Counted from the first letter of the stretch, positions 39,775 to 56,639 are shown. The stretch: DNA of 64,000 nt from Bacteroidaceae bacterium (GCA_017557635.1 JAFYYH010000021.1:110363-174362), one strand, 5' to 3'. Program-made: numbers and translations. The notes: generated by a model not told the origin, from the sequence alone.

Positions 39775-41193
39775 ATGCTATTGTCATCAAACGGTATCGC
39801 AGTGACTTCGTTCGCTGCTCCTGAAGTGTGGAGTGCACTCGTTCAGGTTTTCATCATTGCCCTGGCCGTACTGGCCGGAAACATACTCCGTCGTAAAGTC
39901 AAGGTTCTTCGCCGCAGTCTCATACCCTCAGCTCTGCTGGGAGGTCTCATCATCCTGCTGCTTAAGATGTGGGCCGATTTCAACGGCATCATTGACAAGC
40001 GTTTCATGGAGACAGTCACCTACCACACATTGGCACTGGGTTTCATCGCCATGTCACTGCGTGCATCAAAGGAGACTGACCGCGCCAACACACGCACCGT
40101 TATCGATACCGGTACGCTGACCATCGGAACATATATCATCCAGGGTATCATCGGCCTTCTGGTTACAATCCCCATGTACCTGTGGTGGAGAAATCCCGAG
40201 GCAGGCCGTGACATCTTCTATTCAGGAGGTCTTCTGTTGCCGATGGGCTATGGACAGGGTCCCGGCCAGGCTCTCAACTTCGGAACTATCTACCAGCTGG
40301 GTGCAGCCGATCAGGGTATCAACTTCCATGGCATTGACTTCGGCCTTTCAATAGCCGCCATCGGATTCCTGGTAGGCAGCGTGATAGGTGTGATCTATAT
40401 GAACATACTTAACGGCAGGGGCAAGCTCAAGATCCATGAGCAGGAGAACGTTCAGCGCCATACCCTTAAGGATTATGAGCAGGGCAACGAACTGCCCCAC
40501 TCTGAGTCTGTGGATAAGCTGACCATCGTAGTGAGCATAGTTCTTCTGACCTACTTCCTGGTTTATCTGCTCATGTCGTTCATAGGCAAACTTGAGTTAG
40601 GAAACTTCGGCGAGAAGACTCTCAAGCCACTGGTTTACGGATTCAACTTCTTCTGGGGCATACTGTTCGGTTCACTTGTAAAGATTGTCATCCGCGGTCT
40701 GCGCAAGAGAGGCTGGATGACCCGTGAGTACCTGAATGAGTTCCTGCTGAACCGTGTAAGCGGTATCTGCTTTGACATAATGATCGTAGCCGGAACCGCT
40801 GCCATCAGCTTTGAGAACCTCAAGGCCATCTGGCTGCCGCTCACTCTCGTATGTGTTGCCGGTGCGTTCATCACATTCGTCTATGTTCGCTGGGTATCGT
40901 TCCGCATCTATCCCGATTACAAGTATGAAGGATTCTTCTCAATGTTCGGAATGCTTACCGGTACCGCCAGCAACGGTATGATCCTGCTGCGTGAGATTGA
41001 CCCGCGCTACCAGACTCCTGCCGCCAACAACCTGGTGCTCCAGAACATCCCGGCCATGATAATGGGATTCCCGGTTCTGCTGCTGTTGGGCTTTGCACCC
41101 CATAACCTCAAGGCAACACTGATAACCCTTGGAATACTCATTGCAGCTTTCATAGCAGCAACCCTGTTCCTCTTCAAAAAGCGCAAGAAATAA
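39775..41193 (+). CDS. gltS: sodium/glutamate symporter-like (GltS/ESS family) transporter
   Basis: 472 aa, polytopic. The N-terminus (ALVQVFIIALAVLAGNILRRKVKVLRRSLIPSALLGGLIILLL) resembles the GltS signature. The start was moved to ATG 39775 behind the promoter box. Confidence 0.65.
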   Translation: MLLSSNGIAVTSFAAPEVWSALVQVFIIALAVLAGNILRRKVKVLRRSLIPSALLGGLIILLLKMWADFNGIIDKRFMETVTYHTLALGFIAMSLRASKETDRANTRTVIDTGTLTIGTYIIQGIIGLLVTIPMYLWWRNPEAGRDIFYSGGLLLPMGYGQGPGQALNFGTIYQLGAADQGINFHGIDFGLSIAAIGFLVGSVIGVIYMNILNGRGKLKIHEQENVQRHTLKDYEQGNELPHSESVDKLTIVVSIVLLTYFLVYLLMSFIGKLELGNFGEKTLKPLVYGFNFFWGILFGSLVKIVIRGLRKRGWMTREYLNEFLLNRVSGICFDIMIVAGTAAISFENLKAIWLPLTLVCVAGAFITFVYVRWVSFRIYPDYKYEGFFSMFGMLTGTASNGMILLREIDPRYQTPAANNLVLQNIPAMIMGFPVLLLLGFAPHNLKATLITLGILIAAFIAATLFLFKKRKK

Positions 41194-43815
41194 ATGGCAC
41201 AGAGCAAGCCCGAAGAGACGCCGATGATGCGGCAGTTCTACAGTCTGAAGGAGAAACATCCCGATGCTGTACTGCTGTTCCGCTGTGGAGATTTTTACGA
41301 GACATACGCACAGGATGCTGTTCAGGCAGCCGAGATACTCGGTATCACCCTGACCCGCCGAAACAACGGCAAGAATGGTGCCATGGCACTTGAAATGGCC
41401 GGTTTCCCGCATCACGCCCTTGACGTATATCTGCCCAAACTCATCCGCGCCGGCCGCCGTGTGGCTATCTGTGACCAGCTTGAAGACCCCAAACTCACCA
41501 AGACTCTTGTAAAGCGCGGCATCACCGAACTTGTAACGCCGGGTGTCGCCATGAGTGACAACGTGCTGCAGAACAAGGAGAACAACTTCCTGGCAGCCGT
41601 ACACTTTGGCAAGGGTGCATGGGGCATTTCCTTCCTTGACATATCAACCGGTGAGTACCTCATAGCCGAGGGCCCCGCCGACCATATAGACAAACTGCTC
41701 TCCAACTTCGCTCCCAAGGAGACCCTCATTGAGCGCGGTCACCGCCAGCAGTTCGAGCAGTCTTTCGGCACCCGCTACTGCGTACGCGAACTCGATGACT
41801 GGGTATTTACCGAGGAGTTCGCCCGCGAGAAACTCAACCGCCACTTCAAGGTACGCAACCTCAAGGGATTCGGCGTTGACCATCTGAGCAACGGAAAGGT
41901 TGCCGCCGGCGCCATCCTGGAGTATCTGGCCGAGACGCTGCACAACAACATCGGCCACATCTCATCCATCCGCATGATTGATGAGGAGCGTTACGTGCGT
42001 CTGGACAAGTTCACGGTTCGCAACCTGGAACTGCTCTCATCAAACAATGAGGACGGCGTGTCACTGCTCAAGGTGATTGATCACACATCATCACCCATGG
42101 GCGCCCGTCTGCTGCGCCGCTGGATGCTCTTCCCGCTTAAGGATCCCGCAGCCATCAACAACCGTCTTGACGTTGTTGACCACCTGTTCCGTTATCCCGA
42201 TACGGCCGATGCCCTTACCGATGCACTGCAGCGTATGGGTGACCTGGAACGTCTGGTTTCAAAGGCTGCCGTGGGCCGGATCAACCCGCGTGAAGTCCTC
42301 TCACTGGGTCTGGCACTCAAGCAGCTGGAGCCCGTCAAACTGATATGTGAAGCATCCGAGAATCCGCAGCTCCGTGAGGTCGGTAAAAAGATTGACCTGT
42401 GCGAGACACTTCGTGACAACATAATACGCACCATACGCCCTGACACCCCCATCCTGGTAAGCAAGGGCGGCGTGATTGCCGAGGGCATCGACCCCCAACT
42501 GGATGAACTGCGCAGCATTGCCTACAGCGGCAAGGACTACCTTATGCAGATTCAGCAGCGTGAGGCCGAGCAGACCGGAATATCCAGCCTGAAGATTGCC
42601 TACAACAACGTGTTCGGCTACTATCTTGAGGTACGCAACACCTTCAAGGACAAGGTTCCCGCAGAGTGGATCCGCAAGCAGACGCTGGTCAATGCCGAGC
42701 GTTACATCACCCCTGAACTCAAGGAGTATGAGGAGAAGATCCTGGGGGCCGAGGACAAGATACTTGCGCTTGAATCACAGATATTCTCACAGCTGGCCGC
42801 ATCAATTCTGGAGTACGTTCCCGCCATTCAGGTAAACGCCACCGAGGTGAGCCGCATAGACTGCCTGCTCTCATTTGCCCGCGTGGCACGTGAGCACCGC
42901 TATGTACGCCCCGTGGTTGACGAGAGTCAGATAATAGATATCAAGGAGGGCCGTCATCCGGTAATCGAGACCCAGATGGCGCCGGGTGAGAGTTACATCT
43001 CAAACAACGTCTTTGTCGATAGTGACAGCCAGCAGATACTCATTATCACCGGTCCCAACATGGCGGGTAAATCGGCCCTGCTGCGTCAGACCGCACTCAT
43101 CACGCTGCTTGCCCAGATGGGCTGCTACGTGCCTGCCGACAGCGCACGCATCGGCGTTGTGGACCGCATATTCACCCGCGTGGGAGCCAGCGATAACATA
43201 TCGGCCGGAGAGTCAACCTTCATGGTCGAGATGACCGAGGCCGCCAGCATCCTGAACAACCTGACCGCACGCAGCCTGGTGCTCTTTGACGAGCTGGGCC
43301 GCGGTACATCAACATATGACGGTATTTCAATTGCGTGGGCAATCGTAGAGTACATTCACGAGCACCCGTCGGCCCACGCCCGCACGCTGTTTGCCACCCA
43401 CTACCACGAACTCAATGAGATGGCGCAGTCGTTCAGCCGCATCCGCAACTTCAACGTTTCTGTAAAGGAGACCGACGGCAAGGTGCTGTTCCTGCGCAAG
43501 CTGGTACCCGGAGGCAGCGAGCACTCGTTCGGTATCCATGTGGCCGAGATGGCAGGCATGCCGCGCAGCATCGTTAAGCGCGCCGGCACAATCCTCAAGG
43601 AGATGGAGGCCACCAGCACCGGCAAGGGCATTTCACGTCCCAGCGTAGAGACCGGTCAGCACCGCGAGGGCCTGCAGATGAGTTTCTTCCAGCTGGACGA
43701 TCCCGTGCTCTGCCAGATCCGCGACCAGCTGCTCTCAATTGATGTCAACAACCTCACCCCCATTGAGGCCCTGAACAAACTCAACGACATCAAGAAGATC
43801 CTGAAGGGAAAATGA
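41194..43815 (+). CDS. mutS: DNA mismatch repair protein MutS
   Basis: TPMMRQF N-terminus, Walker [23 protein letters not shown]. 873 aa. Confidence 0.95.
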
Positions 43816-43849
43816 TACCATTGGGGTCTGACCACTTTTGTATGTGTCA

Positions 43850-44953
43850 TTACTCACAGACGGGACGTACGGGCCGTGGCCATGCGCGGTAGCAGGAACC
43901 GGACCACGCAAGATCTGAGTACAAATGAATCCAAAGACAGTCCGCACTGTCAGGATTGTCGGGATCTGTAGAACCAGCCCAGTAACTCAGGTCACCTGAA
44001 GTGCCGAAAAAGGCATAAGGAAGGAAAATGGAGCGGTCCGTGTAACCGGGTTTATTACTTGTTATGAGGAAACCTATCTGGCCGTTCATTGACGCCCAGC
44101 TCCATGTGCAGTTGTAAATGAGTTCATTTATCTCATCTGTAGTGGGCATGCGCCAGCTAGCGCCCCATTTGACGTGAGCTATGTCATCTTCACTCCAGGA
44201 ATATAATCCACCCATTTCATCAGGTCCGGAAGCGTCAACGTTACGTGAGGCCCATTTTACACTCAAGCCCAGGTCAACATACTCTGAGTTGCCACCAACC
44301 AGGTCTGGGGATACATCCGGATAATATTCTATTATGATATGTGCTTCATCTGTCAACTCTTCATGGTATATCCGTTGCTTTATTTGTACATAAACAGTTC
44401 CAGTGCTCAGTTTTGTATCATCTGTATAAGTGAGACGACTGAAATTTCTTGATGAATCACTTATTGACTGTATAGGGGCTGTTACCAGTTTAATATCATT
44501 GGTATAATATGGATCATAGGAATCATTAAAAAGTACAAATTGATTATTGAAACCTATTTGGATTACACTGCTTTTCCTTTCTTTTGTGATAAACCTGCCC
44601 GCTTTATCTATTTCAATGCCAGGCAGGCTGGTGATCAGTTCTTTAAATGTTATCCCCTCTGGTACTTTATATGTCTTTTTGGTGTAGTTTTCTTTGTCTT
44701 CACGTCTTGCCCTTGCTTTTTTAGAAATCTTTCCAATCTTAATGACATACTCAGACTCTATTGATTTCCTTTGTAACTCGCGATATTCCTCACGGGTCAT
44801 ACCATAATGATAAGGCCTGACCTTTTCAATCATATCGGCTGTAAGTTGCGAAAGGCTAACTGTGGAATCACTTTGTGGCTGCTGGGCAATGGCAGGAATG
44901 CAGAGTGACATCAGCACGGATGTCAATGCAAGCAAGAGGACTTTTTTTCTCAT
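43850..44953 (-). CDS. secreted paralogue 1 with C-terminal EYVDLGLSVKW...RPVC domain (shortened version)
   Basis: Signal peptide MRKKVLLLALTSVLMSLCIP. The C-terminus EYVDLGLSVKWASRNV...DIAHVKWGASWRMPT...IFLP...VRPVCE aligns with the C-termini of 45750-46631, 46738-47643 and 47666-49561. It lacks ~35 aa present in the other three. Confidence 0.7.
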   Translation of the reverse strand: MRKKVLLLALTSVLMSLCIPAIAQQPQSDSTVSLSQLTADMIEKVRPYHYGMTREEYRELQRKSIESEYVIKIGKISKKARARREDKENYTKKTYKVPEGITFKELITSLPGIEIDKAGRFITKERKSSVIQIGFNNQFVLFNDSYDPYYTNDIKLVTAPIQSISDSSRNFSRLTYTDDTKLSTGTVYVQIKQRIYHEELTDEAHIIIEYYPDVSPDLVGGNSEYVDLGLSVKWASRNVDASGPDEMGGLYSWSEDDIAHVKWGASWRMPTTDEINELIYNCTWSWASMNGQIGFLITSNKPGYTDRSIFLPYAFFGTSGDLSYWAGSTDPDNPDSADCLWIHLYSDLAWSGSCYRAWPRPVRPVCE

Positions 44954-45051
44954 AATGCCATTTATTTGCTTTGTTCACTATCTAATCTGATTTATAGTGA
45001 AAATGCGTCTTGTGTTAAAGGCGCATTTTCATAATAAACCATAAATGAGAG
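44895..45051 (-). repeat. 157-nt promoter/leader/signal-peptide cassette, copy A
   Basis: Aligns with 46573-46729 without gaps, about 10 mismatches by eye. It spans the first ~20 codons plus ~98 nt upstream and includes the conserved hairpin 44999-45030 (GAAAATGCG N14 CGCATTTTC). Confidence 0.85.
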
Positions 45052-45078
45052 AACGCAAATAGATTACTTTGCTTCTCG

Positions 45079-45384
45079 TTACTTGTTCATTTTGGCAGGG
45101 AGGATTCTATCAACTATTACATAATCCCTTTCTATATGGTAAACATAGATCCATCGGCGATTGTGAGAAACCATTCTTCGACCATTTGGATGTATTGAGC
45201 GTACAGTATCGGATGATGAACGTCCTATACAATCCGCAAACACAGATAGAGATTCTATTTCGTTTCTCATGTTATTGGCATATTGGATAGCACTCTTCTC
45301 AGATAGGATGCTATCCAAAAAAGTCCGAAGATTATCCATATCCGCCTGTGCGGACAGGTTAATCCTCACTTCATAAATTTTCAT
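45079..45384 (-). CDS. type II toxin, RelE/ParE superfamily
   Basis: 101 aa. MKIYEVRINLSAQADMDNL... N-terminus and C-terminal ...WIYVYHIERDYVIVDRILP pattern typical of ParE/RelE toxins. 14-nt overlap with the small upstream ORF. Confidence 0.7.
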   Translation of the reverse strand: MKIYEVRINLSAQADMDNLRTFLDSILSEKSAIQYANNMRNEIESLSVFADCIGRSSSDTVRSIHPNGRRMVSHNRRWIYVYHIERDYVIVDRILPAKMNK

Positions 45385-45574
45385 AATCCTGGTGTACTAG
45401 CGAGATGAGTTTGTCAAAGTACTCATCTACAGATATTGTGTTTTTCAAAATACTTTCTCTAGAAGAAGGAATAGTCCCCATCGCATTAGAACCGCTATTG
45501 ATTCCATATGAAATCATCGGCTCTGAAACAGCAAAAGGTTGTTCTTGTTGCGTGTCTTTTCTTTTCTTACTCAT
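45371..45574 (-). CDS. putative cognate antitoxin
   Basis: 67-aa ORF immediately upstream of, and overlapping, the toxin gene. No family recognised. The call rests on position only. Confidence 0.45.
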   Translation of the reverse strand: MSKKRKDTQQEQPFAVSEPMISYGINSGSNAMGTIPSSRESILKNTISVDEYFDKLISLVHQDYENL

Positions 45575-45603
45575 GATTAAATAGATTGTTTAAAGTCATA
45601 TCG

Positions 45604-45611
45604 CAAAGATA
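45604..45611 (-). promoter_or_regulatory. Bacteroidota -7 promoter box (TATCTTTG) for the toxin-antitoxin pair
   Basis: The reverse complement of caaagata lies 29 nt upstream of ATG 45574. Confidence 0.4.
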
Positions 45612-45696
45612 TATTAATAATTAAAAATACTTTATCTCCCAGAATATTTTTCGTCGGATTTCGGGAAGGGTAGTTCCTTAGGAGATACCATATGCG

Positions 45697-45719
45697 GTTG
45701 GTAACAATCTGTTACCAAC
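45697..45719 (-). terminator. hairpin downstream of paralogue 2
   Basis: Perfect 10-bp stem GTTGGTAACA/TGTTACCAAC with a 3-nt loop, 31 nt after the stop of 45750-46631. No clear U-tract. Confidence 0.4.
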
Positions 45720-45749
45720 TCAAATCCTTCGTCTATACTTTAATTATTG

Positions 45750-46631
45750 TTACGGGCAGACAGGACGGATGGAGCGGCCTTCGTTGCGGTAAGAGCCGTT
45801 TCCCATAGACGCATCACGGCAGAACCATATTCCGTTAGCGTGATCCCAACCGCCCATCAGGAAACTGCCAGTCTCATGACTGAGTGTACTTGACCAATAT
45901 ACGCCGTATTCCGGATACTGATGTTGAGTAGTTACAGCCACCGAGTCGTTAAACATGTTGACAGGAAGGAAAATTGAGTTTTCCTCAAACCCCTCTTTCT
46001 TGCCCGATACCCGGAATCCTTTTACACCGTTTTCTGTTGTCCAGGTCCAATTACACTCTCGCCGCAGTTCATCCATTTCTGCACTAGTAGGAATACGCCA
46101 GTTGCCGCCCCACTTGGCATGGGCCACATCATCCTCCAAGTCCAATACAGTCTTATTGTCTTCATTGCAATACTTGGTATAATTGCCACGGACTCCGTCC
46201 ACACTGTACTTATAGGTGGAGTAACTGTATTCCGTCTTAGTTGTAGTCTCACCCCAGGCAAAGAATCCTCCTACCTCCTCAGGATTAGCGGCTCCCACGT
46301 TACATGTAGCCCATTTTACAGACAATCCCAGGTCAACGTATTCATGCTCCGGGAAATACTGTTTGCCATTTACAAGAATCCGGGTAATTGATTTGCCGTT
46401 TACAGTTATGGTGCCGTCATCGTGCATCTGGGCCCCGGGTAGTTTACGGACCAAATCTTCGGCCGTTTTTATATCATCTCCGTCATACTTGGCAGAATTG
46501 AAAAATAAGGCTGAATCAGTCAACAATTCTCTGTCATCTATATGAGCGATGACAACTTCTTGAGCACACAAGGGAATGCAGAGTGACATCAGCATGGATG
46601 TCAATGCAAGCAAGAGGACTTTCTTTCTCAT
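45750..46631 (-). CDS. secreted paralogue 2 with C-terminal EYVDLGLSVKW...RPVC domain
   Basis: Signal peptide MRKKVLLLALTSMLMSLCIP. EYVDLGLSVKWATCNVGA...WGGNWRIPTSAEMDEL...IFLP...SIRPVCP. Confidence 0.75.
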   Translation of the reverse strand: MRKKVLLLALTSMLMSLCIPLCAQEVVIAHIDDRELLTDSALFFNSAKYDGDDIKTAEDLVRKLPGAQMHDDGTITVNGKSITRILVNGKQYFPEHEYVDLGLSVKWATCNVGAANPEEVGGFFAWGETTTKTEYSYSTYKYSVDGVRGNYTKYCNEDNKTVLDLEDDVAHAKWGGNWRIPTSAEMDELRRECNWTWTTENGVKGFRVSGKKEGFEENSIFLPVNMFNDSVAVTTQHQYPEYGVYWSSTLSHETGSFLMGGWDHANGIWFCRDASMGNGSYRNEGRSIRPVCP

Positions 46632-46729
46632 AATGCTATTAATTTGGTTTGTTCATTATCTAAACTGATTTACAGTGAAAATGCGTCTTGTGTTAAAGGC
46701 GCATTTTCATAATAAAACGTAAATGAGAG
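46573..46729 (-). repeat. 157-nt promoter/leader/signal-peptide cassette, copy B
   Basis: See copy A (44895-45051). Its conserved hairpin is at 46677-46708. Confidence 0.85.
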
Positions 46730-46737
46730 TTTTTGCG

Positions 46738-47643
46738 TTACTCGCAGACGGGACGGATAGCACGGCCCAAGTTGCGTTGCACCATTGATGCATGGAAGTT
46801 CACATCCGGCTCAAGCCACATACCCCACGCATCACAGATACCGTTCAGTTGCAGTACAAGTTGGTCATCAACAAGGAAGCATGTCCAATAGAGGCCTGCA
46901 TACTGGCCTTCACCTATAGACTCACCCTCTACAACGCTCGTAGAATCTCTATATACAGTAAAGGGAAGAAAAATGGAGCGATCTCTATAGCCTCGCTTAT
47001 TACCTCTTATACGGAACCCTTCGGTTCCATCCTTCATCTTTACATAACTCCAGGTACACTTACCCATCAACTCTTTCCATTCACCTGTTGTGGGAATACG
47101 CCAGTTTCCGCCCCATTTTACATGAGCCGCGTCATCTTCAGGATCCAATCTGTTCTTACGGTCTTTATAGTTATACTTGGTAAAGTCATCATAACTGCCG
47201 TTTATGCTGAACTTATAATTGGACATAGTGTATTCAGACTTGGGCTCAGTCTCACCCCAGGCAAAGAGATCGCCTTTATCCTGGGGTCTTTCAGCACCCA
47301 CATTACAGGTGGCCCACTTTACTGATAAGCCCAGGTCAACGTATTCATGTTCAGGGTGGTTATTTTTATCTATTCCCTGAGATTCCTCACTATATACTAC
47401 CTTGCTGTTTTCAGGTAATTGATGCGTTTCGTTTCCTTTTATCATCAATACGTCGTTATCTTTAAACTTTACGAAGTCCTGATTACTGCGGAAGACTTCT
47501 TCAACAGACGCTCTGTTATTAATTGTATTGAGATTGAAAGGCTGTGTTGATTCAACAGGATATCGTATCTGTTGAGCACTCACAGTAAAGCCGATCGACA
47601 TCAGTATGCATGTCAATGCTATATGATGGACAGTCTTTTTCAT
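46738..47643 (-). CDS. secreted paralogue 3 with C-terminal EYVDLGLSVKW...RPVC domain, last gene of the blaI-blaR operon
   Basis: Signal peptide. EYVDLGLSVKWATCNVGA...WGGNWRIPTTGEWKEL...IFLP...AIRPVCE. Its start is only 22 nt downstream of the BlaR1-like gene's stop. Confidence 0.75.
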   Translation of the reverse strand: MKKTVHHIALTCILMSIGFTVSAQQIRYPVESTQPFNLNTINNRASVEEVFRSNQDFVKFKDNDVLMIKGNETHQLPENSKVVYSEESQGIDKNNHPEHEYVDLGLSVKWATCNVGAERPQDKGDLFAWGETEPKSEYTMSNYKFSINGSYDDFTKYNYKDRKNRLDPEDDAAHVKWGGNWRIPTTGEWKELMGKCTWSYVKMKDGTEGFRIRGNKRGYRDRSIFLPFTVYRDSTSVVEGESIGEGQYAGLYWTCFLVDDQLVLQLNGICDAWGMWLEPDVNFHASMVQRNLGRAIRPVCE

Positions 47644-47665
47644 AATGCATTTTTAATTGATAATG

Positions 47666-49561
47666 TTACGGGCAGACGGGACGGACAGAAAGACCAGCCA
47701 TTCGATCCTCCCAACCAATATTAGCTTGATTATTATTAAAACGGATACAGGCTGCAGTACCACATGTTACACTACCATCTCCATAAGGATCTGTCATAAG
47801 CGAACGCGACCAATAGTTACCATTTCTTCCATATTCGTAAAATCCGTTTGCTTTGTATCCGGATGCAGGAAGGAATATGGAACGGTTTGTATAACCCTGT
47901 TTCTTACTTGTAACCCGATATCCGTTTACACCGTTGATAGTTGTCCACTCCCAAGTGCAGTTGTCATGCAACTCATCCATTTCTTCTCTAGTGGGCATAC
48001 GCCAGTTGCCTCCCCAAGTTACATGAGCGACATCATCTTCAAGGTCAAGTGTGGTCTTGTTGTCAACTGTGCCTTGTTCACTGTTTATATTATATTTTTT
48101 CAATGAAAAGGGCATAAATCCCCACTTGCTTGTCCTCATAGTGTATTGTTCTTTGACCTCCGTTTCTCCCCAAGCATACAGATTACCATTATCCTCTGGC
48201 TTACTGGCACCCACATTGCAGGTGGCCCATTTCACAGACAAGCCAAGGTCAACATATTCATGGGTGGTTTTGTCATTATCAGATAACACAGACTGTTTTG
48301 TTTCACTGTCCCAGTTAGAAGCACTATTGGTTACATATACAATAACGCCATTTTCTGCCTCCGGGCCGTACAAGTCAACAGCAGCTTTATCTCTGACTAA
48401 CGTTTGGGATTTAATATCAGAATAAGAGAGTTTTTCAATTGTTGCCTTGTCAACTCTTTTTCCGTCCAGGAAGTAAAGATACTCTTTTCCGTCAGTTCTG
48501 GTTGGCGCCCCCCCAAAAGGAGAAGGTACTTCTCCCATTGGGGTTGTAAAGATATTTACCCCCTTTATAGAATCAGGTTGAACCGCAGTTTCTGGTTCCG
48601 CAGAAACCTTGTCAAACGCAACATTTGCGCTCATTGTAAGCGAAACACACATGACAACCGGTAAATAAAGGAACCTGAGCATCTGACGGCGACCGGACCT
48701 TTTACGGTTCATCATGTCAATGCGGCTCTCTACGCCGTTGCCGTTGAAACTTGCCACTATATTGAATGCCAAGCCGCCTTGTGACTGGCTGAGCAGCATA
48801 AACTGGTACGGACGGGCATCGGACAGGGAGTTGAGGACATCGGCATCGGCCTGCTGCTCATGTACAAGGCACAGGTCACGACGCAGCACCCAGACGGCAG
48901 GGTTGAACCACTGGAACAGCGACATGAAATCAAGCAGCATGAGTTCCATCGGATGGCGGTGTGCTATGTGAGCTTTCTCATGCCTTAAGATGTTGCTGTC
49001 TATGCCGGCATAGTCCTTTTGACTCACCACTATGGTTCCAAGCCAGCTGAACGGGCTTACGTTCTTACGGGTCACAACAATCCTATAGCCGTCACCGCGC
49101 TCTACGGTCTCTCCACCCCTTACTATGGCCGATACCTTCAGGATGGAGTGTACCCTTAGCAGGAGCATCACAATGAGACCTGCCAGATATGCAGCCAGCA
49201 GAATCTGAATCACGACAGCTGTTTTGTCCTTGAGTACTGCAGGTGCCTGGACTCCTGCGCTCTCTGTGGCCGATACCAACGGTGCGGGAGCACTTGTTTG
49301 TGCAACAGGAGAGAATGGCTGGAGTTGATTTACAGGAGTAGCCGCGGGCTGAGTGGATTCGGCGGTCTGGACCACCGGGATATTGCGATGTATTGTAATT
49401 ACAGTTACAGGCAGAACATAAGAGAGTACAAGCGAAAGCATCAGGGCTGCGCGCTTAAGGCCGTGGAATGTTTCGCGGCGCAACAAAAGGCGGTACATAA
49501 GTACGAAAACAAAGGTCAGTAAGGCCGCCTTTCCAAGGAATAAAAGGACTTGAGTATTCAT
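47666..49561 (-). CDS. BlaR1/MecR1-like M56 peptidase signal transducer fused to a C-terminal EYVDLGLSVKW...RPVC domain
   Basis: 631 aa. N-terminal TM helices and the ILRHEKAHIAHRHP (HExxH) motif of family M56. A further TM segment (LRFLYLPVVMCVSLTM). C-terminal 198 aa (nt 47666-48261) HEYVDLGLSVKWATCNVGA...WGGNWRMPTREEMDEL...IFLP...SVRPVCP. 4-nt overlap with blaI. Confidence 0.8.
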   Translation of the reverse strand: MNTQVLLFLGKAALLTFVFVLMYRLLLRRETFHGLKRAALMLSLVLSYVLPVTVITIHRNIPVVQTAESTQPAATPVNQLQPFSPVAQTSAPAPLVSATESAGVQAPAVLKDKTAVVIQILLAAYLAGLIVMLLLRVHSILKVSAIVRGGETVERGDGYRIVVTRKNVSPFSWLGTIVVSQKDYAGIDSNILRHEKAHIAHRHPMELMLLDFMSLFQWFNPAVWVLRRDLCLVHEQQADADVLNSLSDARPYQFMLLSQSQGGLAFNIVASFNGNGVESRIDMMNRKRSGRRQMLRFLYLPVVMCVSLTMSANVAFDKVSAEPETAVQPDSIKGVNIFTTPMGEVPSPFGGAPTRTDGKEYLYFLDGKRVDKATIEKLSYSDIKSQTLVRDKAAVDLYGPEAENGVIVYVTNSASNWDSETKQSVLSDNDKTTHEYVDLGLSVKWATCNVGASKPEDNGNLYAWGETEVKEQYTMRTSKWGFMPFSLKKYNINSEQGTVDNKTTLDLEDDVAHVTWGGNWRMPTREEMDELHDNCTWEWTTINGVNGYRVTSKKQGYTNRSIFLPASGYKANGFYEYGRNGNYWSRSLMTDPYGDGSVTCGTAACIRFNNNQANIGWEDRMAGLSVRPVCP

Positions 49562-49917
49562 TTGCGGTTTTCAATTTTGTCAATAATACGTTTAAGATCG
49601 TCAACGGACAGACGCTCCTCCTCAACCAGTCCAAGGACTACGCTTGAGTATGAGCTGTCAAAGTATTCGTTTACCAGCCCGTGGAAACCGTCCAGACTGT
49701 ATGCCTTGCGTGACACGGCAGCTGAGTACTGGTAGTTGCTTCCAAAGGCTTTGCGCTCCAGGAACCCGTCCTCCATAAGTGTGTGCACCTGATTGGAGAG
49801 AGTGTTGAAATTGGGACGGGGTTCCTCATAATGCTCCTGCAGTTCACGTACAAACATAGGACCATAGGTCCAGAACTGCTCCATGATGATTTTTTCCTTT
49901 TTGGTGAGTTGTCTCAT
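49558..49917 (-). CDS. BlaI/MecI/CopY-family transcriptional repressor
   Basis: 119 aa from MRQLTKKEKIIMEQFW..., a winged-helix N-terminus typical of the family, translationally coupled to the M56 gene. The ORF-track start 49971 would place the operator palindromes inside the coding sequence. Confidence 0.8.
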   Translation of the reverse strand: MRQLTKKEKIIMEQFWTYGPMFVRELQEHYEEPRPNFNTLSNQVHTLMEDGFLERKAFGSNYQYSAAVSRKAYSLDGFHGLVNEYFDSSYSSVVLGLVEEERLSVDDLKRIIDKIENRK

Positions 49918-49930
49918 AAGCAAACACAAA

Positions 49931-49962
49931 TTGATTTTGACGCAAATCAAAATAATTTTGAT
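49931..49962 (-). promoter_or_regulatory. overlapping palindromes, candidate BlaI operator
   Basis: The minus strand reads ATCAAAA-TTA-TTTTGAT-TTGCGTC-AAAATCAA. This includes the 7-1-7 palindrome TCAAAAT-T-ATTTTGA and the 7-6-7 palindrome TTGATTT/AAATCAA. They sit 14-45 nt upstream of the blaI ATG and abut a near-consensus -7 box TCAATTTG. Confidence 0.4.
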
Positions 49963-49995
49963 ACACCTCACAAATCTTTTGTGTTAATAATTGTT

Positions 49996-50146
49996 ATCCC
50001 GCCAAAGTGTCCCACAGCAAACCCCGCTCATAGGCTTTGTGGCGAGGATGAGCGTGGGACATACCCTCTGGATGGGGGTGTGTAACACAGTCACCGGGGC
50101 GAGAATACGCTCTGGCGGGGGTTATTGTGGGACACTTTGGCGGGAT
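49996..50146. repeat. 151-nt GC-rich element bounded by perfect 21-bp inverted repeats (MITE/REP-like or structured RNA)
   Basis: ATCCCGCCAAAGTGTCCCACA (49996-50016) is the exact reverse complement of TGTGGGACACTTTGGCGGGAT (50126-50146). The interior carries further imperfect pairing (AACCCCGC/GCGGGGGTT), an internal 10-bp hairpin ACATACCCTC/GGGGGTGTGT and a third GTGGGACA copy. Confidence 0.85.
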
Positions 50147-50165
50147 TAGCGGGGTCGGGCTGGGT

Positions 50166-52550
50166 TTACTCGCTCTTGATTACATCAGCGGGATTCTCTG
50201 TCATTGCCCGGCGTATGTTGCCAAAAACGGTAACAGCGATGATAATGAGCATGCAAACAAATACGGAGAGATATACCCAGATTGTTATTGGTGTCTGGCG
50301 GACGTAGACGGAGAGCCAGCGGTGCATAATGGTTGCTCCTACCGAGAAGGCTGCAATGGCACTCAAAATAATGATGGGCATATATTCTTTCACGAATATC
50401 ATAAGGATGTCATTCATCCTGGCGCCGTTTATCTTACGGATGGCAATCTCCTTGCGGCGTTTCTGACACAACAGTGATACTATGCTGTAAAGACCGCTTA
50501 CGGCTACGATTACGCAAACCAGGGTTATGATCATCAGCAACAAACTTAACATCGACTCGGACTTAATGAATTGCATATAATTCATTTCCAGATTATTGCT
50601 GTTATACATTGCATCCGGTCTTATCTCACGCATTGTCTCCACTATTTTCCTCTCCAATTCATACCAGTTGACACCCTCCTTGTATTTGAAAAAGAAATAG
50701 GAATCTGCATTCATTCCGGTTACATTGTCCTCCTTCTTGTATTGATACACCAATGGAGAAATCTCCTCTTTGGGATCCAGATAACACAAATCCTTTATAA
50801 CGCCCTTGACAAGGTACGGAGTGCCTAGACTGGCTATCTCTTTACCTACAACCTTATCGGCCCCTCCCAGCAAATTGGCAAGAGTCTCATTTATCACAAT
50901 AACGTTGCCCTGTTCTTCCTGGCTGAACAGTTCACCGGCCACAGGTTTCACTTCTATAATGTCAAGGTAATCCCTGTTGGCTTTTATCATGACGGTTTTT
51001 ATTTTGACAGGCTCACCACCCACGCTATCACCTTCGACCGATGAATATGAGGAGTAGGTTCCTGCGGGACGATATCCATAGACAACCTTTTCCAGCTCAG
51101 GCATCATCTTGAGTTTTTCCCTTGCTGCCATGACATCGGTCTCTGTCATTCCATACTGATAGCAGACACCGACATTGTGTTTGGTATATCCCATGTCCGA
51201 TGACAACAGCAGATGATGTAACTGTCGGTTTATGATTACAGAGCAGAAAATGGCACAGAGACTTACTGTCAACTGGAAACCTATGCTTATCTTGTATCCG
51301 ATTGCAGTTCCTGTAATACTTACACTGCTGCCGAAATACTGTGCCAACTGTTTACGCCCGGTCACGGCAATGAATACCATCGCAACCAATAATGACAACA
51401 ACCCTATGATTGCACCCGATACAAAATAGCTCGTTATAAAGAACGTAACGGACTTGTCCATCACACTCAGGACTTTAAAGAACGGCAAGACAAACATGAA
51501 TATGACGACACCTGCCAAAAGAGAGAGCAAAAGAACAATCAGTATTTCAGTACAGAACAGCATCACAATCTGCTTCATGCCGGCTCCGTTGGCATAGCGC
51601 AGTGATATTTCCCTGACCCTCATTCTGATTTTGGTCACAAACAGGGTAAAGTAGTTGGTCAGTGAACATACTATCAGCACAATGCCCAACAACATCAGGA
51701 TGTATACATATTGTAAGTTTACATTCTTTTCAACTGCATTGTAAATTTCTGCTTCCGCCCTGACTTTAGATAAGGGCAGAAGTTTGAACTTCATTTCAAA
51801 TGTTTGTTGCCATGTTACTTCATAACCGCTGGATAATGTCATTGAGCCATTATAGATAACTGTATCAGTCTCTATTTCCCGAGCTAACATATCCAGGTTT
51901 TCATCACTTACTCTGACAAACAGATTTGTAGATATATAACCTCTGGTATCATATTTCTCCAAATCATATCCCATCAGAAAATCATAAGGAAAAGAAGTCG
52001 GTCTTTTAGGATCCTCTATTACGGATTTGACTGTAACAACGCCCATGTTTGTATACAATGTCTGACCTGCTGCGTTGCCGTTTTCAAACAACTTGTCGGC
52101 CTGACTCTTTGTCAATGCAATCTCATCCTTTGAAAGATTCAGTATATTATCGCCTTCCAGCACCTTGACTTCAAAGAAATCCTGATAAGTATCATCTACG
52201 CACTGTCCGTTCAGTTGTACAGCGTTTCCTTCACGGAAAACATTGAGATCTTGCCCCATACATCTTGCAACCCCCTCTATCTGCGGGTATTTCTCTACCA
52301 AAAAAGTTCCGTCACTATATGATACATAGCTCCTGTAACTCTTTTCGACATAGGTAGGATCATTGCTCAATACAAGGTAAATGTCGTCGCAGTTACTGTA
52401 GAATGAATCGTAACTCCGTTCATACCGTATCCACATAAGTGTAAGTGAACAGAAAACCATTCCCAAAGCGATTGACAAAACTGCTATAATGCTCTGGAGC
52501 TTATACTTGGCAATATTACGGACTGCAATTTTTAGATAATGACTGAACAT
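50166..52550 (-). CDS. FtsX/MacB-type ABC transporter permease (two FtsX domains)
   Basis: 794 aa. N-terminus MFSHYLKIAVRNIAKYKLQSIIAVLSIALG is typical of Bacteroidota FtsX-like permeases, with two TM clusters separated by large extracytoplasmic domains. There is no adjacent ATPase gene. Confidence 0.8.
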   Translation of the reverse strand: MFSHYLKIAVRNIAKYKLQSIIAVLSIALGMVFCSLTLMWIRYERSYDSFYSNCDDIYLVLSNDPTYVEKSYRSYVSYSDGTFLVEKYPQIEGVARCMGQDLNVFREGNAVQLNGQCVDDTYQDFFEVKVLEGDNILNLSKDEIALTKSQADKLFENGNAAGQTLYTNMGVVTVKSVIEDPKRPTSFPYDFLMGYDLEKYDTRGYISTNLFVRVSDENLDMLAREIETDTVIYNGSMTLSSGYEVTWQQTFEMKFKLLPLSKVRAEAEIYNAVEKNVNLQYVYILMLLGIVLIVCSLTNYFTLFVTKIRMRVREISLRYANGAGMKQIVMLFCTEILIVLLLSLLAGVVIFMFVLPFFKVLSVMDKSVTFFITSYFVSGAIIGLLSLLVAMVFIAVTGRKQLAQYFGSSVSITGTAIGYKISIGFQLTVSLCAIFCSVIINRQLHHLLLSSDMGYTKHNVGVCYQYGMTETDVMAAREKLKMMPELEKVVYGYRPAGTYSSYSSVEGDSVGGEPVKIKTVMIKANRDYLDIIEVKPVAGELFSQEEQGNVIVINETLANLLGGADKVVGKEIASLGTPYLVKGVIKDLCYLDPKEEISPLVYQYKKEDNVTGMNADSYFFFKYKEGVNWYELERKIVETMREIRPDAMYNSNNLEMNYMQFIKSESMLSLLLMIITLVCVIVAVSGLYSIVSLLCQKRRKEIAIRKINGARMNDILMIFVKEYMPIIILSAIAAFSVGATIMHRWLSVYVRQTPITIWVYLSVFVCMLIIIAVTVFGNIRRAMTENPADVIKSE

Positions 52551-52582
52551 AAGGACTTTTCTGAATTACCGGGACAAAAGTA

Positions 52583-52601
52583 AGGGCGGTAATTCCGCCC
52601 T
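52583..52601 (-). terminator. intrinsic terminator after the threonine aldolase-like gene
   Basis: The minus strand reads AGGGCGG-AATTA-CCGCCCT followed by TACTTTTG, 79 nt after the stop at 52680. Confidence 0.6.
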
Positions 52602-52679
52602 CCAAGTAAAAAGAACAAAAACCTCCTTTTTGCTCCAAAAGTGTCCAATTATTAGACACCTGACTCAACAGAAGAGTTG

Positions 52680-53702
52680 TCAGAGTTTGCTGATGAATTC
52701 GTCGATCATCTGGTCCGATGTGTTCCAGCTGGTTACAAAGCGGACTACGCTCTGCTGGGGTCCGCAGGGAGCCCAGATCTCAAATGATGCGAACTTGCTG
52801 ATACGCTCAATTTCCTTCTTGGGAAGGCAGAAGAACTGCTGGTTGGTAGGTGAGTCAACGTACGGTGAGAAACCTTTGGCAATCATAGCCTTCTTGAGTC
52901 TCAAGGCCTGGGCTACAGCATTGCCGGCAATTTCAAGATAGAGATTGTCCGTGAACAATGTGCTGAACTGTACGCCCAGCAGACGACCCTTGGCCAGCAT
53001 TGCTCCGTGCTGCTTCACGAATGTAAAGAAACGGGGCAACAGTTCTGGATGTGCCGTAACCACAGCCTCACCGAACATTGCACCAACCTTAGTTCCGCCG
53101 ATGTAGAAGACATCGCATAGGCGTGCTATATCCTTAAGCGTTACATCCTTGGATGCAGCCAAGCCATAGCCCAGACGGGCACCATCCATATAAAGAGGAA
53201 TATTGTACTTATGGCACACACGGCTCAAGGCCTCCAACTCACCAAGTGAGTAAAGCGTACCCCACTCTGTCGGGAATGAAAGATAAAGAGCTCCCGGTGA
53301 AACCATATGCTGATGGTTCTCATTCTCATAGAACTCGGTCAAATATCGCTCAATATCATATGCTGCAACCTTGCCCTGATGTGAGGGTACAATCAGAATC
53401 TTATGGCCCGATGACTCAACGGCACCTGCCTCAAGGTTATTGATATGGGCCACATCCGATGCCATGATACCTTCATACTGATGGAGCAGACCATCAATGA
53501 CAGTAGCGTTAGCCTGAGTACCGCCCACAAGGAAACGCACCAGAGCGTCGGGACAGCCACACGCCTCGCGTATCAGATCAGCGGCGCGGCGGGTATACTC
53601 ATCCTCACCGTAACCTACGGTCTGTTCAAGATTGGTCTCAACCAGACGCTGCATCACCAGCGGATGCGCGCCCTCCATATAATCGGAATCAAAATGCAGC
53701 AT
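52680..53702 (-). CDS. ltaE: low-specificity threonine aldolase / beta-eliminating lyase family PLP enzyme
   Basis: 340 aa from [14 protein letters not shown]... with the [12 protein letters not shown]-lysine motif. ATG 53702 was chosen because the -7 box at 53725-53732 lies inside the longer ORF. Confidence 0.75.
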
Positions 53703-53724
53703 ATCGGAATAACTTTTGTGAATG

Positions 53725-53732
53725 CAAATGTA
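53725..53732 (-). promoter_or_regulatory. Bacteroidota -7 promoter box (TACATTTG) for the aldolase gene
   Basis: The reverse complement of caaatgta lies 22 nt upstream of ATG 53702. Confidence 0.45.
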
Positions 53733-53767
53733 ATAAATATCCAATTGCGTTTGTGCCTGAAATTGTG

Positions 53768-53775
53768 TAATTTTG
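53768..53775 (+). promoter_or_regulatory. Bacteroidota -7 promoter box (TAATTTTG) for leuS
   Basis: TAnnTTTG match 29 nt upstream of ATG 53805. Confidence 0.45.
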
Positions 53776-53804
53776 CGCGTCAAAACGAATCATTCGAAGC
53801 AATA

Positions 53805-56639
53805 ATGGAATACGATTTCAGAGCTATTGAGAAAAAGTGGCAGGAAAAGTGGGCCAAGGAGGGAACTTATAAGGTAACTGAGGATGCCTCCAGACCCAAG
53901 TATTACGTACTCAACATGTTCCCCTACCCGTCAGGCGCAGGCCTGCACGTAGGACACCCGCTGGGATACATTGCATCCGATATCTACGCACGCTACAAGC
54001 GCCAGTGCGGATTCAACGTCCTGAACCCCATGGGTTACGATGCATACGGCCTGCCCGCCGAGCAGTACGCCATACAGACCGGCCAGCACCCCGCAATTAC
54101 GACTGAAAAGAACATAAACCGCTACCGCGAGCAGCTGGACAAAATAGGATTCTCATTTGATTGGGACCGTGAGGTCAGGACATGTGAGCCCGGCTACTAC
54201 CACTGGACCCAGTGGGCATTCCAGAAGATGTTCGGCTCATTCTACTGCAACAAGTGCCAGAGCGCCCAGCCCATTGAGAAACTCATTGAGCGTTTTGAGC
54301 AGAAGGGAACCGAGGGTCTTGACGTAGCCCAGAGCGAGGAACTCAACTTTACTGCAGCCGAGTGGAAGGCCATGGACGAGAAGCAGAAGTCAGACGTTCT
54401 GATGAACTACCGCATAGCCTACCTGGGCGAGACCATGGTAAACTGGTGCGCCGGACTGGGTACCGTGCTTGCCAACGACGAGGTAGTTGAGGGCGTATCG
54501 GTCCGCGGCGGATTCCCCGTAGAGCAGAAGAAGATGCGTCAGTGGTGTCTCCGTGTATCAGCCTACGCACAGCGCCTGCTTGACGGTCTGGATACCATAG
54601 ACTGGTCCGATTCCATCAAGGAGACCCAGCGCAACTGGATTGGCCGCTCCGAGGGTACCGAGATGCAGTTCCACGTAAAGGACAGCGACATAGAATTCAC
54701 CATATTCACCACCCGTGCCGATACCATATTCGGTGTAACATTCATGGTACTTGCTCCTGAGAGCGAGCTGGTGACACAGCTCACCACACCCGCCCAGAAG
54801 AAGGAGGTTGATGCATACGTAGCAGCCGTAAAGAAGCGTACCGAGCGCGAGCGTATAGCAGACCGCCGCGTTACCGGCGTATTCAGCGGCTCATACGCAA
54901 TCAACCCGCTTACCGGTGAGGATGTACCCGTATGGATCAGTGACTACGTACTGGCCGGTTACGGTACAGGCGCCATCATGGCCGTACCTGCACATGACAG
55001 CCGTGACTACGCATTCGCAAAGCACTTTGGCCTTGAGATCCGTCCGCTCATTGAGGGTTGCGACGTATCTGAGGAGAGCTTCGATGCCAAGGAGGGTACA
55101 ATGATGAACTCACCCCGTCCCGACCAGATCCGTGAGGGCGGTCTCAACCTGAACGGACTCTCAGTCAAGGAGGCTATCGCAGCCACCAAGAAATATGTAC
55201 AGGAGAACAAACTGGGTAAGGTAAAGGTCAACTACCGTCTGCGTGACGCCATATTCAGCCGTCAGCGCTACTGGGGTGAGCCGTTCCCTGTTTACTACAA
55301 GAACGGTATTCCTACCATGGTACCCGAGCAGTGCCTGCCGCTGGAACTCCCCGAGATCAGTGAGTACAAGCCCACCGAGACCGGTGAACCCCCTCTGGGT
55401 CATGCCAAGGTTTGGGCCTTTGACGAGAAGAACAACAAGGTTGTTGACAAGTCACTCATCGACAACAAGACCGTATTCCCGCTGGAGCTCAACACCATGC
55501 CCGGATTCGCAGGCTCATCGGCCTACTATCTGCGTTACATGGATCCCCATAACAATAAGGCTCTGGTAAGCAAGGAGGCCGATAACTACTGGAAGTGCGT
55601 TGACCTCTATCTGGGAGGTTCCGAGCACGCCACCGGTCACCTTATCTACTCACGTTTCTGGAACAAGTTCCTCAAGGACCTGGGAGTAAGCGAGGTCGAG
55701 GAGCCGTTCAGCAAGCTGATCAACCAGGGTATGATCCAGGGCCGCAGTAACTTTGTATACCGTATCAAGGATACAAACAAGTTCGTATCATACGGCCTCA
55801 AGGACCAGTATGACACCACTCCCATACACGTTGACGTAAACATTGTAAGTGCCGATGTTCTGGACGTAGAGGCATTCAAGAACTGGCGTCCCGAGTACAA
55901 CAACGCTGAATTCATCCTTGAGAACGGCAAGTACATCTGCGGATGGGCCGTTGAGAAGATGAGTAAGTCAATGTTCAACGTAGTCAACCCCGATGACATC
56001 ATTGAGAAATACGGTGCCGATACACTGCGCATGTACGAGATGTTTCTTGGACCGCTTGAGCAGTCAAAGCCCTGGGATACCAACGGTATTGACGGCTGCC
56101 ACCGCTTTATCCGCAAGATGTGGGCTCTCTACTTTGACCGCGACGGCAAGCTTGCAGTAAGTGATGAGCAGGCTTCAAAGGACGAACTCAAGTCAATCCA
56201 CAAGCTCATAAAGAAGGTAACTGAGGATATTGAGAACTTCTCATTCAACACATCGGTTGCCGCATTCATGATATGCGTAAACGAGCTGTCAGGTCTTAAG
56301 TGCAACAAGCGTTCGGTACTGGCTGACCTGGCCAAGGTGATCGCTCCCTTTGCACCTCACACCGCTGAGGAACTCTGGTCATCACTCGGCAATGCCGGTT
56401 CAGTATGTGACGCTGAATGGCCCAAGTTCAACGAGGAGTACCTCAAGGAGGACAGCATAACCTACTCCATCTCATTCAACGGCAGGACCCGCTTCACAAT
56501 GGACTTCCCGGCCGATGCAACCCAGCAGGAGATTCAGGATGCAGTCCTTGCCAATGAGAAGGCTCAGAGCTACATTGAAGGCAAGCCCATCCGCAAGGTG
56601 ATTGTTGTACCGCGCAAGATCGTGAACATAGTTCTCTAA
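53805..56639 (+). CDS. leuS: leucine--tRNA ligase
   Basis: [16 protein letters not shown]..., HIGH-type motif [15 protein letters not shown] motif. 944 aa. The ORF-track start 53445 is an antisense run-on. Confidence 0.95.

Follow-up and report, generated by a model that had tools for sequence, protein, structure and literature searches.

In the BlaI/BlaR1 and MecI/MecR1 systems of Staphylococcus and Bacillus, a repressor gene lies directly upstream of, and overlaps, the gene for an M56-family sensor. The sensor is a zinc protease with four membrane helices and the motifs HExxH and ExxxD; its ectodomain follows the fourth transmembrane helix (TM4), and a palindromic site precedes the operon. 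Since BlaR's C-terminal domain (CTD) is a homologue of the secreted class D beta-lactamases (10.1101/2022.01.19.477027), a sensor ectodomain that is paralogous to a secreted protein is the classical design. For a long time, BlaIR systems were taken to be sensors of antibiotics. Kurtz et al. in 2026 characterised CenIR of C. difficile and surveyed about 15,000 M56 proteins, finding 254 architectures; only about 6% had a transpeptidase domain and about 6% could bind beta-lactams, common partners included TonB_C and Plug, and a blaI gene lay near 96% of the proteins (PMC13492132). The same survey established that BlaIR systems with other ectodomains regulate non-beta-lactam functions and that most of the sensed signals are unidentified (PMC13492132). 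Further non-beta-lactam cases are PvmSR of P. aeruginosa (10.64898/2026.08.03.742534) and PetR/PetP of Synechocystis (10.1101/2020.07.31.226407), to which the atypical BlaIR of M. tuberculosis and M. abscessus can be added. The M56-TonB fusions TonB1 and TonB10 of B. thetaiotaomicron were noted as uncharacterised (10.1101/2023.07.07.548152). Here we describe a BlaIR-family operon in a 64,000-nucleotide (nt) stretch of DNA from an uncultured rumen Bacteroidaceae bacterium (GCA_017557635.1 JAFYYH010000021.1:110363-174362; hereafter the window, with positions counted from its first letter). Its M56 protein has a DUF1566-like domain, and its third gene encodes p301, a predicted exported protein with a domain of the same family.

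The locus shares with BlaI/BlaR1 and MecI/MecR1 the overlapping repressor and M56 genes, the four-helix zinc protease with its ectodomain after TM4, and the palindrome before the operon. Moreover, just as the ectodomain of BlaR1 is related to class D beta-lactamases, the DUF1566-like domain of this sensor is related to p301. Unlike BlaR1 and MecR1, this sensor has a lectin-like DUF1566-type domain and a Plug-like segment with no penicillin-binding domain, its host is diderm so that it would face the periplasm, the residues at the repressor cleavage site differ, and the output is p301 rather than a resistance enzyme. As in CenIR, PvmSR, PetR/PetP and mycobacterial BlaIR, the signal is unidentified or not a beta-lactam. 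However, the ectodomains of those atypical sensors are disordered or absent, whereas this operon encodes a domain of about 200 amino acids (aa) that is confidently folded in its model, that has a paralogue in the operon, that comes from a very large family, and that appears to belong to an exchangeable cassette. The Bacteroidota proteins in which M56 is fused to TonB_C, Plug or CarboxypepD_reg resemble the present case in phylum, in the position of the M56 module next to blaI and in a Plug-like periplasmic motif; unlike the TonB_C fusions, this protein has no TonB_C, and a DUF1566-like domain follows the Plug-like motif. In the literature we found no description of an M56 sensor whose ectodomain is of the DUF1566 type and has a paralogue in the operon, nor of ectodomain-cassette exchange at one locus. 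The sequence-only reading of this DNA was aware of no described system with this logic, a view that goes too far given the 2026 survey and the relationship between the BlaR sensor domain and class D beta-lactamases. The locus appears to be a hitherto undescribed variant within a broad class that was recognised recently, and not a new kind of system. Its value would be that of a model case and not of a new principle, the general class being already described; mainly it would give a tractable handle on the ligand of a very large uncharacterised domain family and an example of modular sensor exchange.

Judged from their reading frames, blaI (49917-49558, 119 aa), the M56 sensor gene (49561-47666, 631 aa) and the p301 gene (47643-46738, 301 aa) form a compact minus-strand operon in which blaI and the M56 gene overlap by 4 nt and the M56 gene is separated from p301 by 22 nt. 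This layout agrees with the sequence-only reading. The same gene order, with p301 directly 3′ of the M56 gene, was kept in related loci L001-L005 and L016. A terminator-like hairpin (GGGG-loop-CCCC-TTTT) was found immediately after p301 in the relatives, which fits an operon end.

The first gene encodes a winged-helix repressor of the BlaI/MecI family. The protein scored 72.4 bits against PF03965 in Pfam (cut-off 22.6, E=4.9e-20) and aligned with the MecI structures 1SD6 and 1OKR (E=1e-5). None of its 119 residues is a cysteine, so it lacks the CxCx4CxC metal motif of CopY; its score against TIGR02698 (CopY_TcrY) in NCBIfam was 31.9 bits for a cut-off of 121.95. The second gene product matched PF05569 (Peptidase_M56) with 41.3 bits (cut-off 31, E=1.4e-10), and its N-terminal 330 aa aligned to S. 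aureus BlaR1 (8EXP, E=5e-5). In this alignment HEKAH (residues 194-198) fell on HEYAH and HEQQAD (234-239) on NEVEAD, such that both the HExxH motif and the downstream ExxxD of the zinc site were present. The profile match and the alignment bear out the proposal of a BlaI/M56 module with an intact HEKAH site whose HExxH region is that of Peptidase_M56.

Hydropathy analysis of the M56 protein identified four membrane segments, and a full-length AlphaFold2 (AF2) model, although of low confidence, had helices at the same four positions. The membrane and protease half of the protein (residues 1-316; 48614-49561, minus strand), assigned from PF05569, the 8EXP alignment and hydropathy, comprises TM1 (2-27), TM2 (37-58), a Pro/Ala/Gln-rich periplasmic loop (59-111), TM3 (112-148), the cytoplasmic zinc-protease core with HEKAH (48982-48968, minus strand), and TM4 (294-316). 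Basic residues flank the predicted cytoplasmic sides. By the positive-inside rule the BlaR1 plan would therefore be reproduced, with residues 317-631 outside the cytoplasm. As the sequence-only reading had claimed, no penicillin-binding or TonB-type domain was found; no transpeptidase (PF00905), beta-lactamase or TonB_C family matched the M56 protein in Pfam at E≤0.01. The NCBIfam model NF000326 (blaR1_generic) gave 29 bits over the protease core only, for a cut-off of 400.

The sensor's C-terminal domain comprises residues 433-631 (47666-48265 with the stop codon, minus strand). BLASTP with these last 199 aa retrieved three proteins encoded in the window, namely p293 (E=5e-57, 46%), p301 (E=5e-47, 41%) and p367 (E=2e-35, 38%). 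This homology, which is far beyond chance and had been recognised in the sequence-only reading, extends over an alignment with 39 invariant columns that include WR.PT..E..EL, IFLP and RPVC. When the full 631-aa protein was used as the query, at least 46,041 clusters at 50% identity were retrieved at E≤1e-3, and nearly all of the best 150 matches covered residues ~400-631 only. The top matches were giant secreted metagenome proteins of 1,000-4,600 aa with up to 14 copies of the domain (P0241-P0388). Such proteins dominated the representative-library search, which therefore gives no count of independent fusions of M56 with DUF1566. The frequent occurrence of the domain in giant multi-domain secreted proteins fits a binding role.

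Fifty-one of 60 close relatives of the domain matched Lcl_C (PF07603) at E≤1e-3 (best 1.7e-10), and one of the 60 matched FISUMP (PF09603). DUF1566-like domains also occurred in distant rumen Bacteroidales M56 proteins (35-40% identity), among which fusions L017 and L024, both with Big_2, reached 37.2 and 40.3 bits against Lcl_C and thus passed the Pfam cut-off of 34.9. The two neighbours p293 and p367 scored 18.3 and 17.3 bits. Against the FISUMP model TIGR02145 (cut-off 41.65), p301 gave 16.3 bits (E=0.012), and the sensor domain gave nothing even at E≤10. Public sources label relatives as "DUF1566 domain-containing protein" or "TIGR02145 family" (one relative as TIGR02145 by the Joint Genome Institute). 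Because 51 of 60 relatives match Lcl_C and the distant fusions L017 and L024 pass its cut-off, these profile matches support a relationship of the sensor domain to DUF1566/Lcl_C-FISUMP at the superfamily level rather than formal membership. The FISUMP/DUF1566-type assignment of the sequence-only reading thus held at the superfamily level, while the sensor copy itself fell below both family cut-offs.

The AF2 model of the isolated domain had a predicted local distance difference test (pLDDT) score of 91.5. A Foldseek search with this model, as the sequence-only reading had proposed, returned as its top PDB match the CTD of Legionella Lcl (8q4e_A), but the match was not significant (E=0.44, probability 0.60, 49 aligned columns); the next matches, at lower probability, were snake-venom C-type lectin-like proteins. 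A PDB sequence search with the isolated domain found nothing at E≤10, and a 60-sequence profile gave a chance match only. The label "lectin-like" consequently rests on the relatives' Pfam profile matches together with these weak top matches, and a lectin function for the sensor domain would be an analogy. The Lcl CTD, which belongs to the one studied DUF1566 protein, is C-type-lectin-like, an obligate trimer and glycosaminoglycan-binding, and the general role of DUF1566 has been called unclear (PMC11162425). Lcl CTD (PF07603, 8Q4E) and FISUMP (TIGR02145/PF09603) share with the sensor domain the WR.PT..E..EL helix motif and perhaps a C-type-lectin-like beta core. Unlike Lcl, the sensor domain lies below both family cut-offs, has an N-terminal extension of ~65 aa (HEYVDLGLSVKWATCNVGA...) and conserved cysteines, and has no collagen stalk. 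We also considered the domain as the target of a diversity-generating retroelement and rejected this idea; the 64-kb window contained no ~100-nt near-identical template/variable repeat pair, and the domain was 96-100% identical among L001-L003 and the window.

Between TM4 and this domain, residues 354-415 (48317-48502, minus strand) weakly resembled the start of the SusC/RagA Plug, a feature absent from the sequence-only reading. The segment matched TIGR04056 (E=6e-5, 21.6 bits, cut-off 368) and TIGR04057 (E=0.004, 17 bits, cut-off 46.2), so that the apparent resemblance is only partial and local. It was the sole moderately confident part of the full-length AF2 model (pLDDT 72-83). The same short Plug-like motif terminates many other Bacteroidales M56 proteins, including those of Parabacteroides, Prevotella and others.

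p301, p293 and p367 each had one N-terminal hydrophobic segment followed by an AxA-Q type cleavage motif, which accords with their earlier description as secreted proteins. p301 is predicted to consist of a signal peptide (residues 1-24, VSA|QQ), an N-region (25-97) without family matches, and the DUF1566-like domain (98-301; 47352-46741, minus strand). The sequence-only reading had viewed such proteins as soluble copies of the sensor's own binding domain. Identity between the sensor domain and any soluble domain was 46-48%, which is no closer than other paralogue pairs in the locus, and the N-terminal regions of p301, p293 and p367 showed no similarity to the juxtamembrane region of the sensor. 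On these grounds, identity of 46-48% and unrelated N-terminal regions, the comparison indicates that the soluble proteins are old paralogues rather than copies.

The putative promoter and operator of the operon lie at 49943-49974 (minus strand) and consist of a conserved palindrome surrounded by promoter-like boxes. The operator-like palindrome, ATCAAAA-N3-TTTTGAT, occupies 49962-49946, and a third half-site, TCAAAAT, occupies 49940-49934. The Bacteroides promoter consensus is TTTG at −33 and TAnnTTTG at −7. By resemblance to this consensus, the −33-like TTTG at 49974-49971 and the −7-like TTGATTTG at 49950-49943, which are 20 nt apart, would constitute a promoter around the palindrome. A scan for sigma-70 promoters and terminators gave counts near the shuffle expectation, the scan being ill-suited to Bacteroidota. 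Upstream of blaI, 15 relatives had TATCAAAA-N3-TTTTGATTTGC, with invariant arms and a variable 3-nt centre, as expected for a dimer-binding operator; this palindrome is thus a candidate for such a site. A search of the window that allowed up to 2 mismatches found this one copy only. When up to 1 mismatch was allowed, there were 15 sites in 1.25 Mb of related loci, all 15 of them ~28 nt before a blaI ATG and none before any paralogue.

We consider it probable that this is an autoregulated three-gene BlaIR-family operon in which ligand-triggered proteolysis leads to derepression and p301 is the single output. A BlaI dimer would bind ATCAAAA-N3-TTTTGAT, which overlaps the predicted promoter, and repress all three genes of the operon. 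The M56 protein would act as an inner-membrane zinc protease with four transmembrane helices, whose periplasmic part is predicted to start with the short Plug-like segment and to continue with a DUF1566/Lcl_C-type domain in place of BlaR1's penicillin-binding domain. Engagement of this ectodomain by a periplasmic ligand or partner protein would activate the cytoplasmic protease, and the activated protease would cleave BlaI and derepress the operon. p301, with its paralogous domain and predicted export through signal peptidase I (SPI), is the only evident output besides the regulators. Because the sensor and effector of the BlaR1/beta-lactamase pair share a ligand-binding fold, p301 would by analogy most likely bind or handle the same class of molecule as the sensor. 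The sequence-only reading had suggested a glycan or surface ligand. That suggestion was a guess; the host being diderm, the ectodomain and the SPI-exported paralogues would face the periplasm.

The locus offers a strongly conserved ectodomain, well folded in its model, whose domain family is among the largest uncharacterised ones in rumen and gut Bacteroidales. If the proposed mechanism operates, this ectodomain, the one obvious output gene of the same family and a clean candidate operator would together make a tractable reporter, and whatever induces the operon would be a candidate ligand for the DUF1566-like domain family.

Comparison with related loci suggested how the sensor acquired its ectodomain. 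In the blaI, membrane/protease, Plug-like, lectin-like and p301 domains the ratio of nonsynonymous to synonymous substitution rates (dN/dS) was 0.0-0.35 (blaI 0.02-0.05, M56 N-half 0.05-0.17, lectin-like domain 0-0.24, p301 0.13-0.19), and higher, poorly determined values were confined to short linkers and the signal peptide of p301. By this measure the folded domains are under purifying selection. The lectin-like domain of the sensor was 100% identical in protein sequence to that of L001 and 96% identical to those of L002 and L003. Synonymous divergence (dS) from L001 was 0.35-0.39 in blaI and the M56 N-half and 0.05-0.13 in the Plug-like segment, the lectin-like domain and p301. In sister proteins, 80-90% identity over residues 1 to ~317-338 was followed by ~750 aa of BspA-type leucine-rich repeats (LRR). 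Identity of the M56 N-half to these sisters was 75-85% in tblastn best segments and up to 90% by BLASTP, and homology stopped at residue 317-338, just past TM4. Such LRR modules were located at L006:2947-8943, L008:10586-16630 and L009:4054-8242 and also in L010, L011, L012, L013 and L014; the blaI-M56(LRR) pair of L009 had the same position as the window's module relative to mutS and the p367 counterpart. Taken together, the low dS of the ectodomain and p301 block and the occurrence at this site of an LRR ectodomain on the same N-half indicate that a cassette of ectodomain and downstream gene is exchanged by recombination onto a constant blaI/M56 transducer, and ectodomain and p301 appear to travel as one such cassette. 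One transducer half with a lectin-like or an LRR ectodomain at a single site suggests how sensors of this type diversify. We rejected, as a rule for the lineage, a paralogue of the sensor domain downstream of the M56 gene; it was missing from LRR modules and distant fusions.

A stronger version of the exchange model, which we regard as unlikely, holds that the cassettes are matched to ligands. One envelope- or diet-derived molecule would be recognised both by the sensor ectodomain and by p301, which would titrate it or present it to the sensor, and whole cassettes of ectodomain and output gene (DUF1566-type/p301 or BspA-LRR/esterase) would be swapped just after TM4 onto the constant BlaI/M56 transducer. 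If this were true, closely related rumen strains would sense different things at one locus, and the inducer of the operon would be the first identified ligand of the very large DUF1566/FISUMP family of gut and rumen bacteria.

Several observations weigh against derepression through ligand binding by the DUF1566-like domain, with p301 as its output. The cleavage site of MecI and BlaI, N-F (N101-F102 in MecI), corresponds to G-L, at about residues 96-97, in the aligned BlaI of the window. Many M56 proteins end with the Plug-like motif alone, so the Plug-like segment could receive the signal. The full-length AF2 model was poor (pLDDT 45.6, shallow alignment) and was not used in the fold search, and the model of the isolated domain had no significant Foldseek match in PDB or BFVD. 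Against Lcl_C the sensor remained below the Pfam cut-off of 34.9, with 20.1 bits for the full protein and 23 bits (E=1e-4) for the isolated domain. Identity between the sensor and p301 domains was 46%, at which a shared ligand is not required. The distant M56+Lcl_C fusions had no paralogous downstream gene, and what followed the LRR modules was a gene for either a tandem Esterase (PF00756)/CBM48 protein or a protein of 196 aa, with no similarity to the LRR ectodomain in either case.

Downstream of the operon, the neighbouring p293 gene (46631-45750, minus strand) encodes an exported DUF1566-like protein. The product of the p367 gene (44953-43850, minus strand) is likewise exported, and its DUF1566-like domain (residues 222-367) is shortened. 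p293 is the counterpart of p221, which is encoded in the relatives' second module (69% identity), and p367 is the counterpart of p319, p361 and p362 (66-68% for p319 and p361). A conserved 5′ element together with the signal-peptide coding start of p293 occupies 46573-46729 (minus strand, copy of repeat D5; hairpin 46677-46708), and a second copy precedes p367 (44895-45051, minus strand; hairpin 44999-45030). The two copies were 94% identical, with a conserved block of ~100 nt. Altogether, 12 copies were found in 9 genomes, those outside the window being at L001:15925, L004:15857, L005:16142, L006:12687, L008:16662 and 19768, L009:8287, L010:4924, L014:8000 and L016:4837. In all of them the 9-10 bp hairpin and its 12-14 nt loop were invariant, and the distance to the ATG of the DUF1566-like gene that followed, whose signal peptide was of the MRKKVLLLALTS class, was always ~45 nt. 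The element folds stably (−18.5 kcal/mol, z=−3.3), and an Rfam search of 43500-50500 gave two chance-level matches only, none at the hairpins. This element could be a promoter or leader, the site of another regulator, or a recombination arm.

The sequence-only reading had placed p293 and p367 in the regulon by way of these hairpins. The genes are adjacent and share one strand, a single base separates the hairpin arm TGAAAAT from the operator half-site TCAAAAT, and the element is strictly conserved before MRKKVLLLALTS-class DUF1566-like genes. However, the half-sites of the hairpin are spaced by 20 nt rather than 3, the window contains no other operator with N3 spacing (up to 2 mismatches), and none stands before the paralogues in the 1.25 Mb of related loci. 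The element also precedes such genes in loci L008, L009, L010 and L014, in which the M56 protein has an LRR ectodomain, and hence is not tied to this sensor. The hairpins are accordingly a different conserved element, and a wider regulon that includes p293 and p367 is very unlikely; p293 is probably outside the control of the blaI operator, and p301 alone among the paralogues seems to be tied to the switch. Even less credible, to the point of near exclusion, is a classical BlaR1-type beta-lactam or CopY-type copper sensor. The family names and the faint blaR1_generic (29 bits) and CopY_TcrY (31.9 bits) matches are all that points to it, and these scores are far under the cut-offs of 400 and 121.95. 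In addition, no transpeptidase domain was detected, the cysteine-free BlaI has no CxCx4CxC, and the operon contains no gene for a beta-lactamase, a penicillin-binding protein or a copper ATPase.

Two other explanations retain the BlaIR switch and reassign its parts. The signal receiver could be the Plug-like segment (354-415), which would link the protease with a partner in the envelope, for example the machinery of TonB and TonB-dependent transporters, the DUF1566-like domain being an appended binding or anchoring module. The recurrence of the motif as the C-terminus of M56 proteins from Parabacteroides, Prevotella and other genera, the rank of Plug and TonB_C among the commonest M56 partners (PMC13492132), the M56 domains of TonB1 and TonB10 in B. 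thetaiotaomicron, and strong purifying selection on the segment all agree with such a role. Nevertheless, the resemblance is far under the family cut-offs, the lectin-like domain is conserved at least as well (100% to L001), and exchange between sister modules takes the whole ectodomain rather than the tip alone, so we think it doubtful that the Plug-like segment is the receiver. Alternatively, p301 could act not as an effector but as a partner of the sensor, forming hetero-oligomers with its ectodomain or, as a co-receptor or decoy, presenting or withholding the ligand and so giving signalling feedback. Sensor and p301 have domains of one family, a gene of this kind stands immediately downstream in two types of module, p301 is co-inherited with the ectodomain as one low-dS block, and in Lcl the C-terminal domain forms obligate trimers (PMC11162425). 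On the other hand, p301 is just 46% identical to the sensor domain, and neither the distant M56+Lcl_C fusions nor the LRR sister modules have a paralogous downstream gene; we give a partner role for p301 a small chance. The preferred reading remains ligand-triggered derepression with p301 as the output.

A second tandem module, blaI-M56(DUF1566-like)-p221, was present in L001, L003, L004 and L006. The DNA between p301 or p227 and the blaI gene of this module (L001:12833-12892, and likewise in L003, L004 and L006) lacked ATCAAAA-N3-TTTTGAT; instead, a palindromic terminator-like sequence, ACAAAAGGGG-TCTGT-CCCCTTTTGT, stood before this blaI. Because of this difference, the two tandem modules may differ in their wiring, or transcription of the first may run on into the second.

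The near-identical and identical proteins found for this locus came from metagenome-assembled genomes of uncultured rumen Bacteroidaceae. In the window, the five minus-strand genes from blaI to p367 are arranged head to tail, with mutS (41194-43815) on the plus strand at one side and the gene of a MacB/FtsX-type permease (52550-50166, minus strand) at the other. The MacB/FtsX gene was missing from L012 between an ltaE-like gene and blaI. The G+C content was 0.40-0.47 over 44000-54000, which holds the blaI/DUF1566 island and the MacB/FtsX gene, and 0.53-0.57 in mutS (40000-44000); the low value fits a variable, exchanged region. Between p293 and p367, two small overlapping open reading frames of 67 and 101 aa (45574-45371 and 45384-45079, minus strand), neither with a match in Pfam or NCBIfam, have an arrangement that resembles a toxin-antitoxin pair. 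Elsewhere in the window, a tandem 27-nt repeat of at least 5 copies occupied 27189-27382 and, if translated, would encode 9-residue Lys/Pro/Phe-rich units (…KPF[RH]K…).

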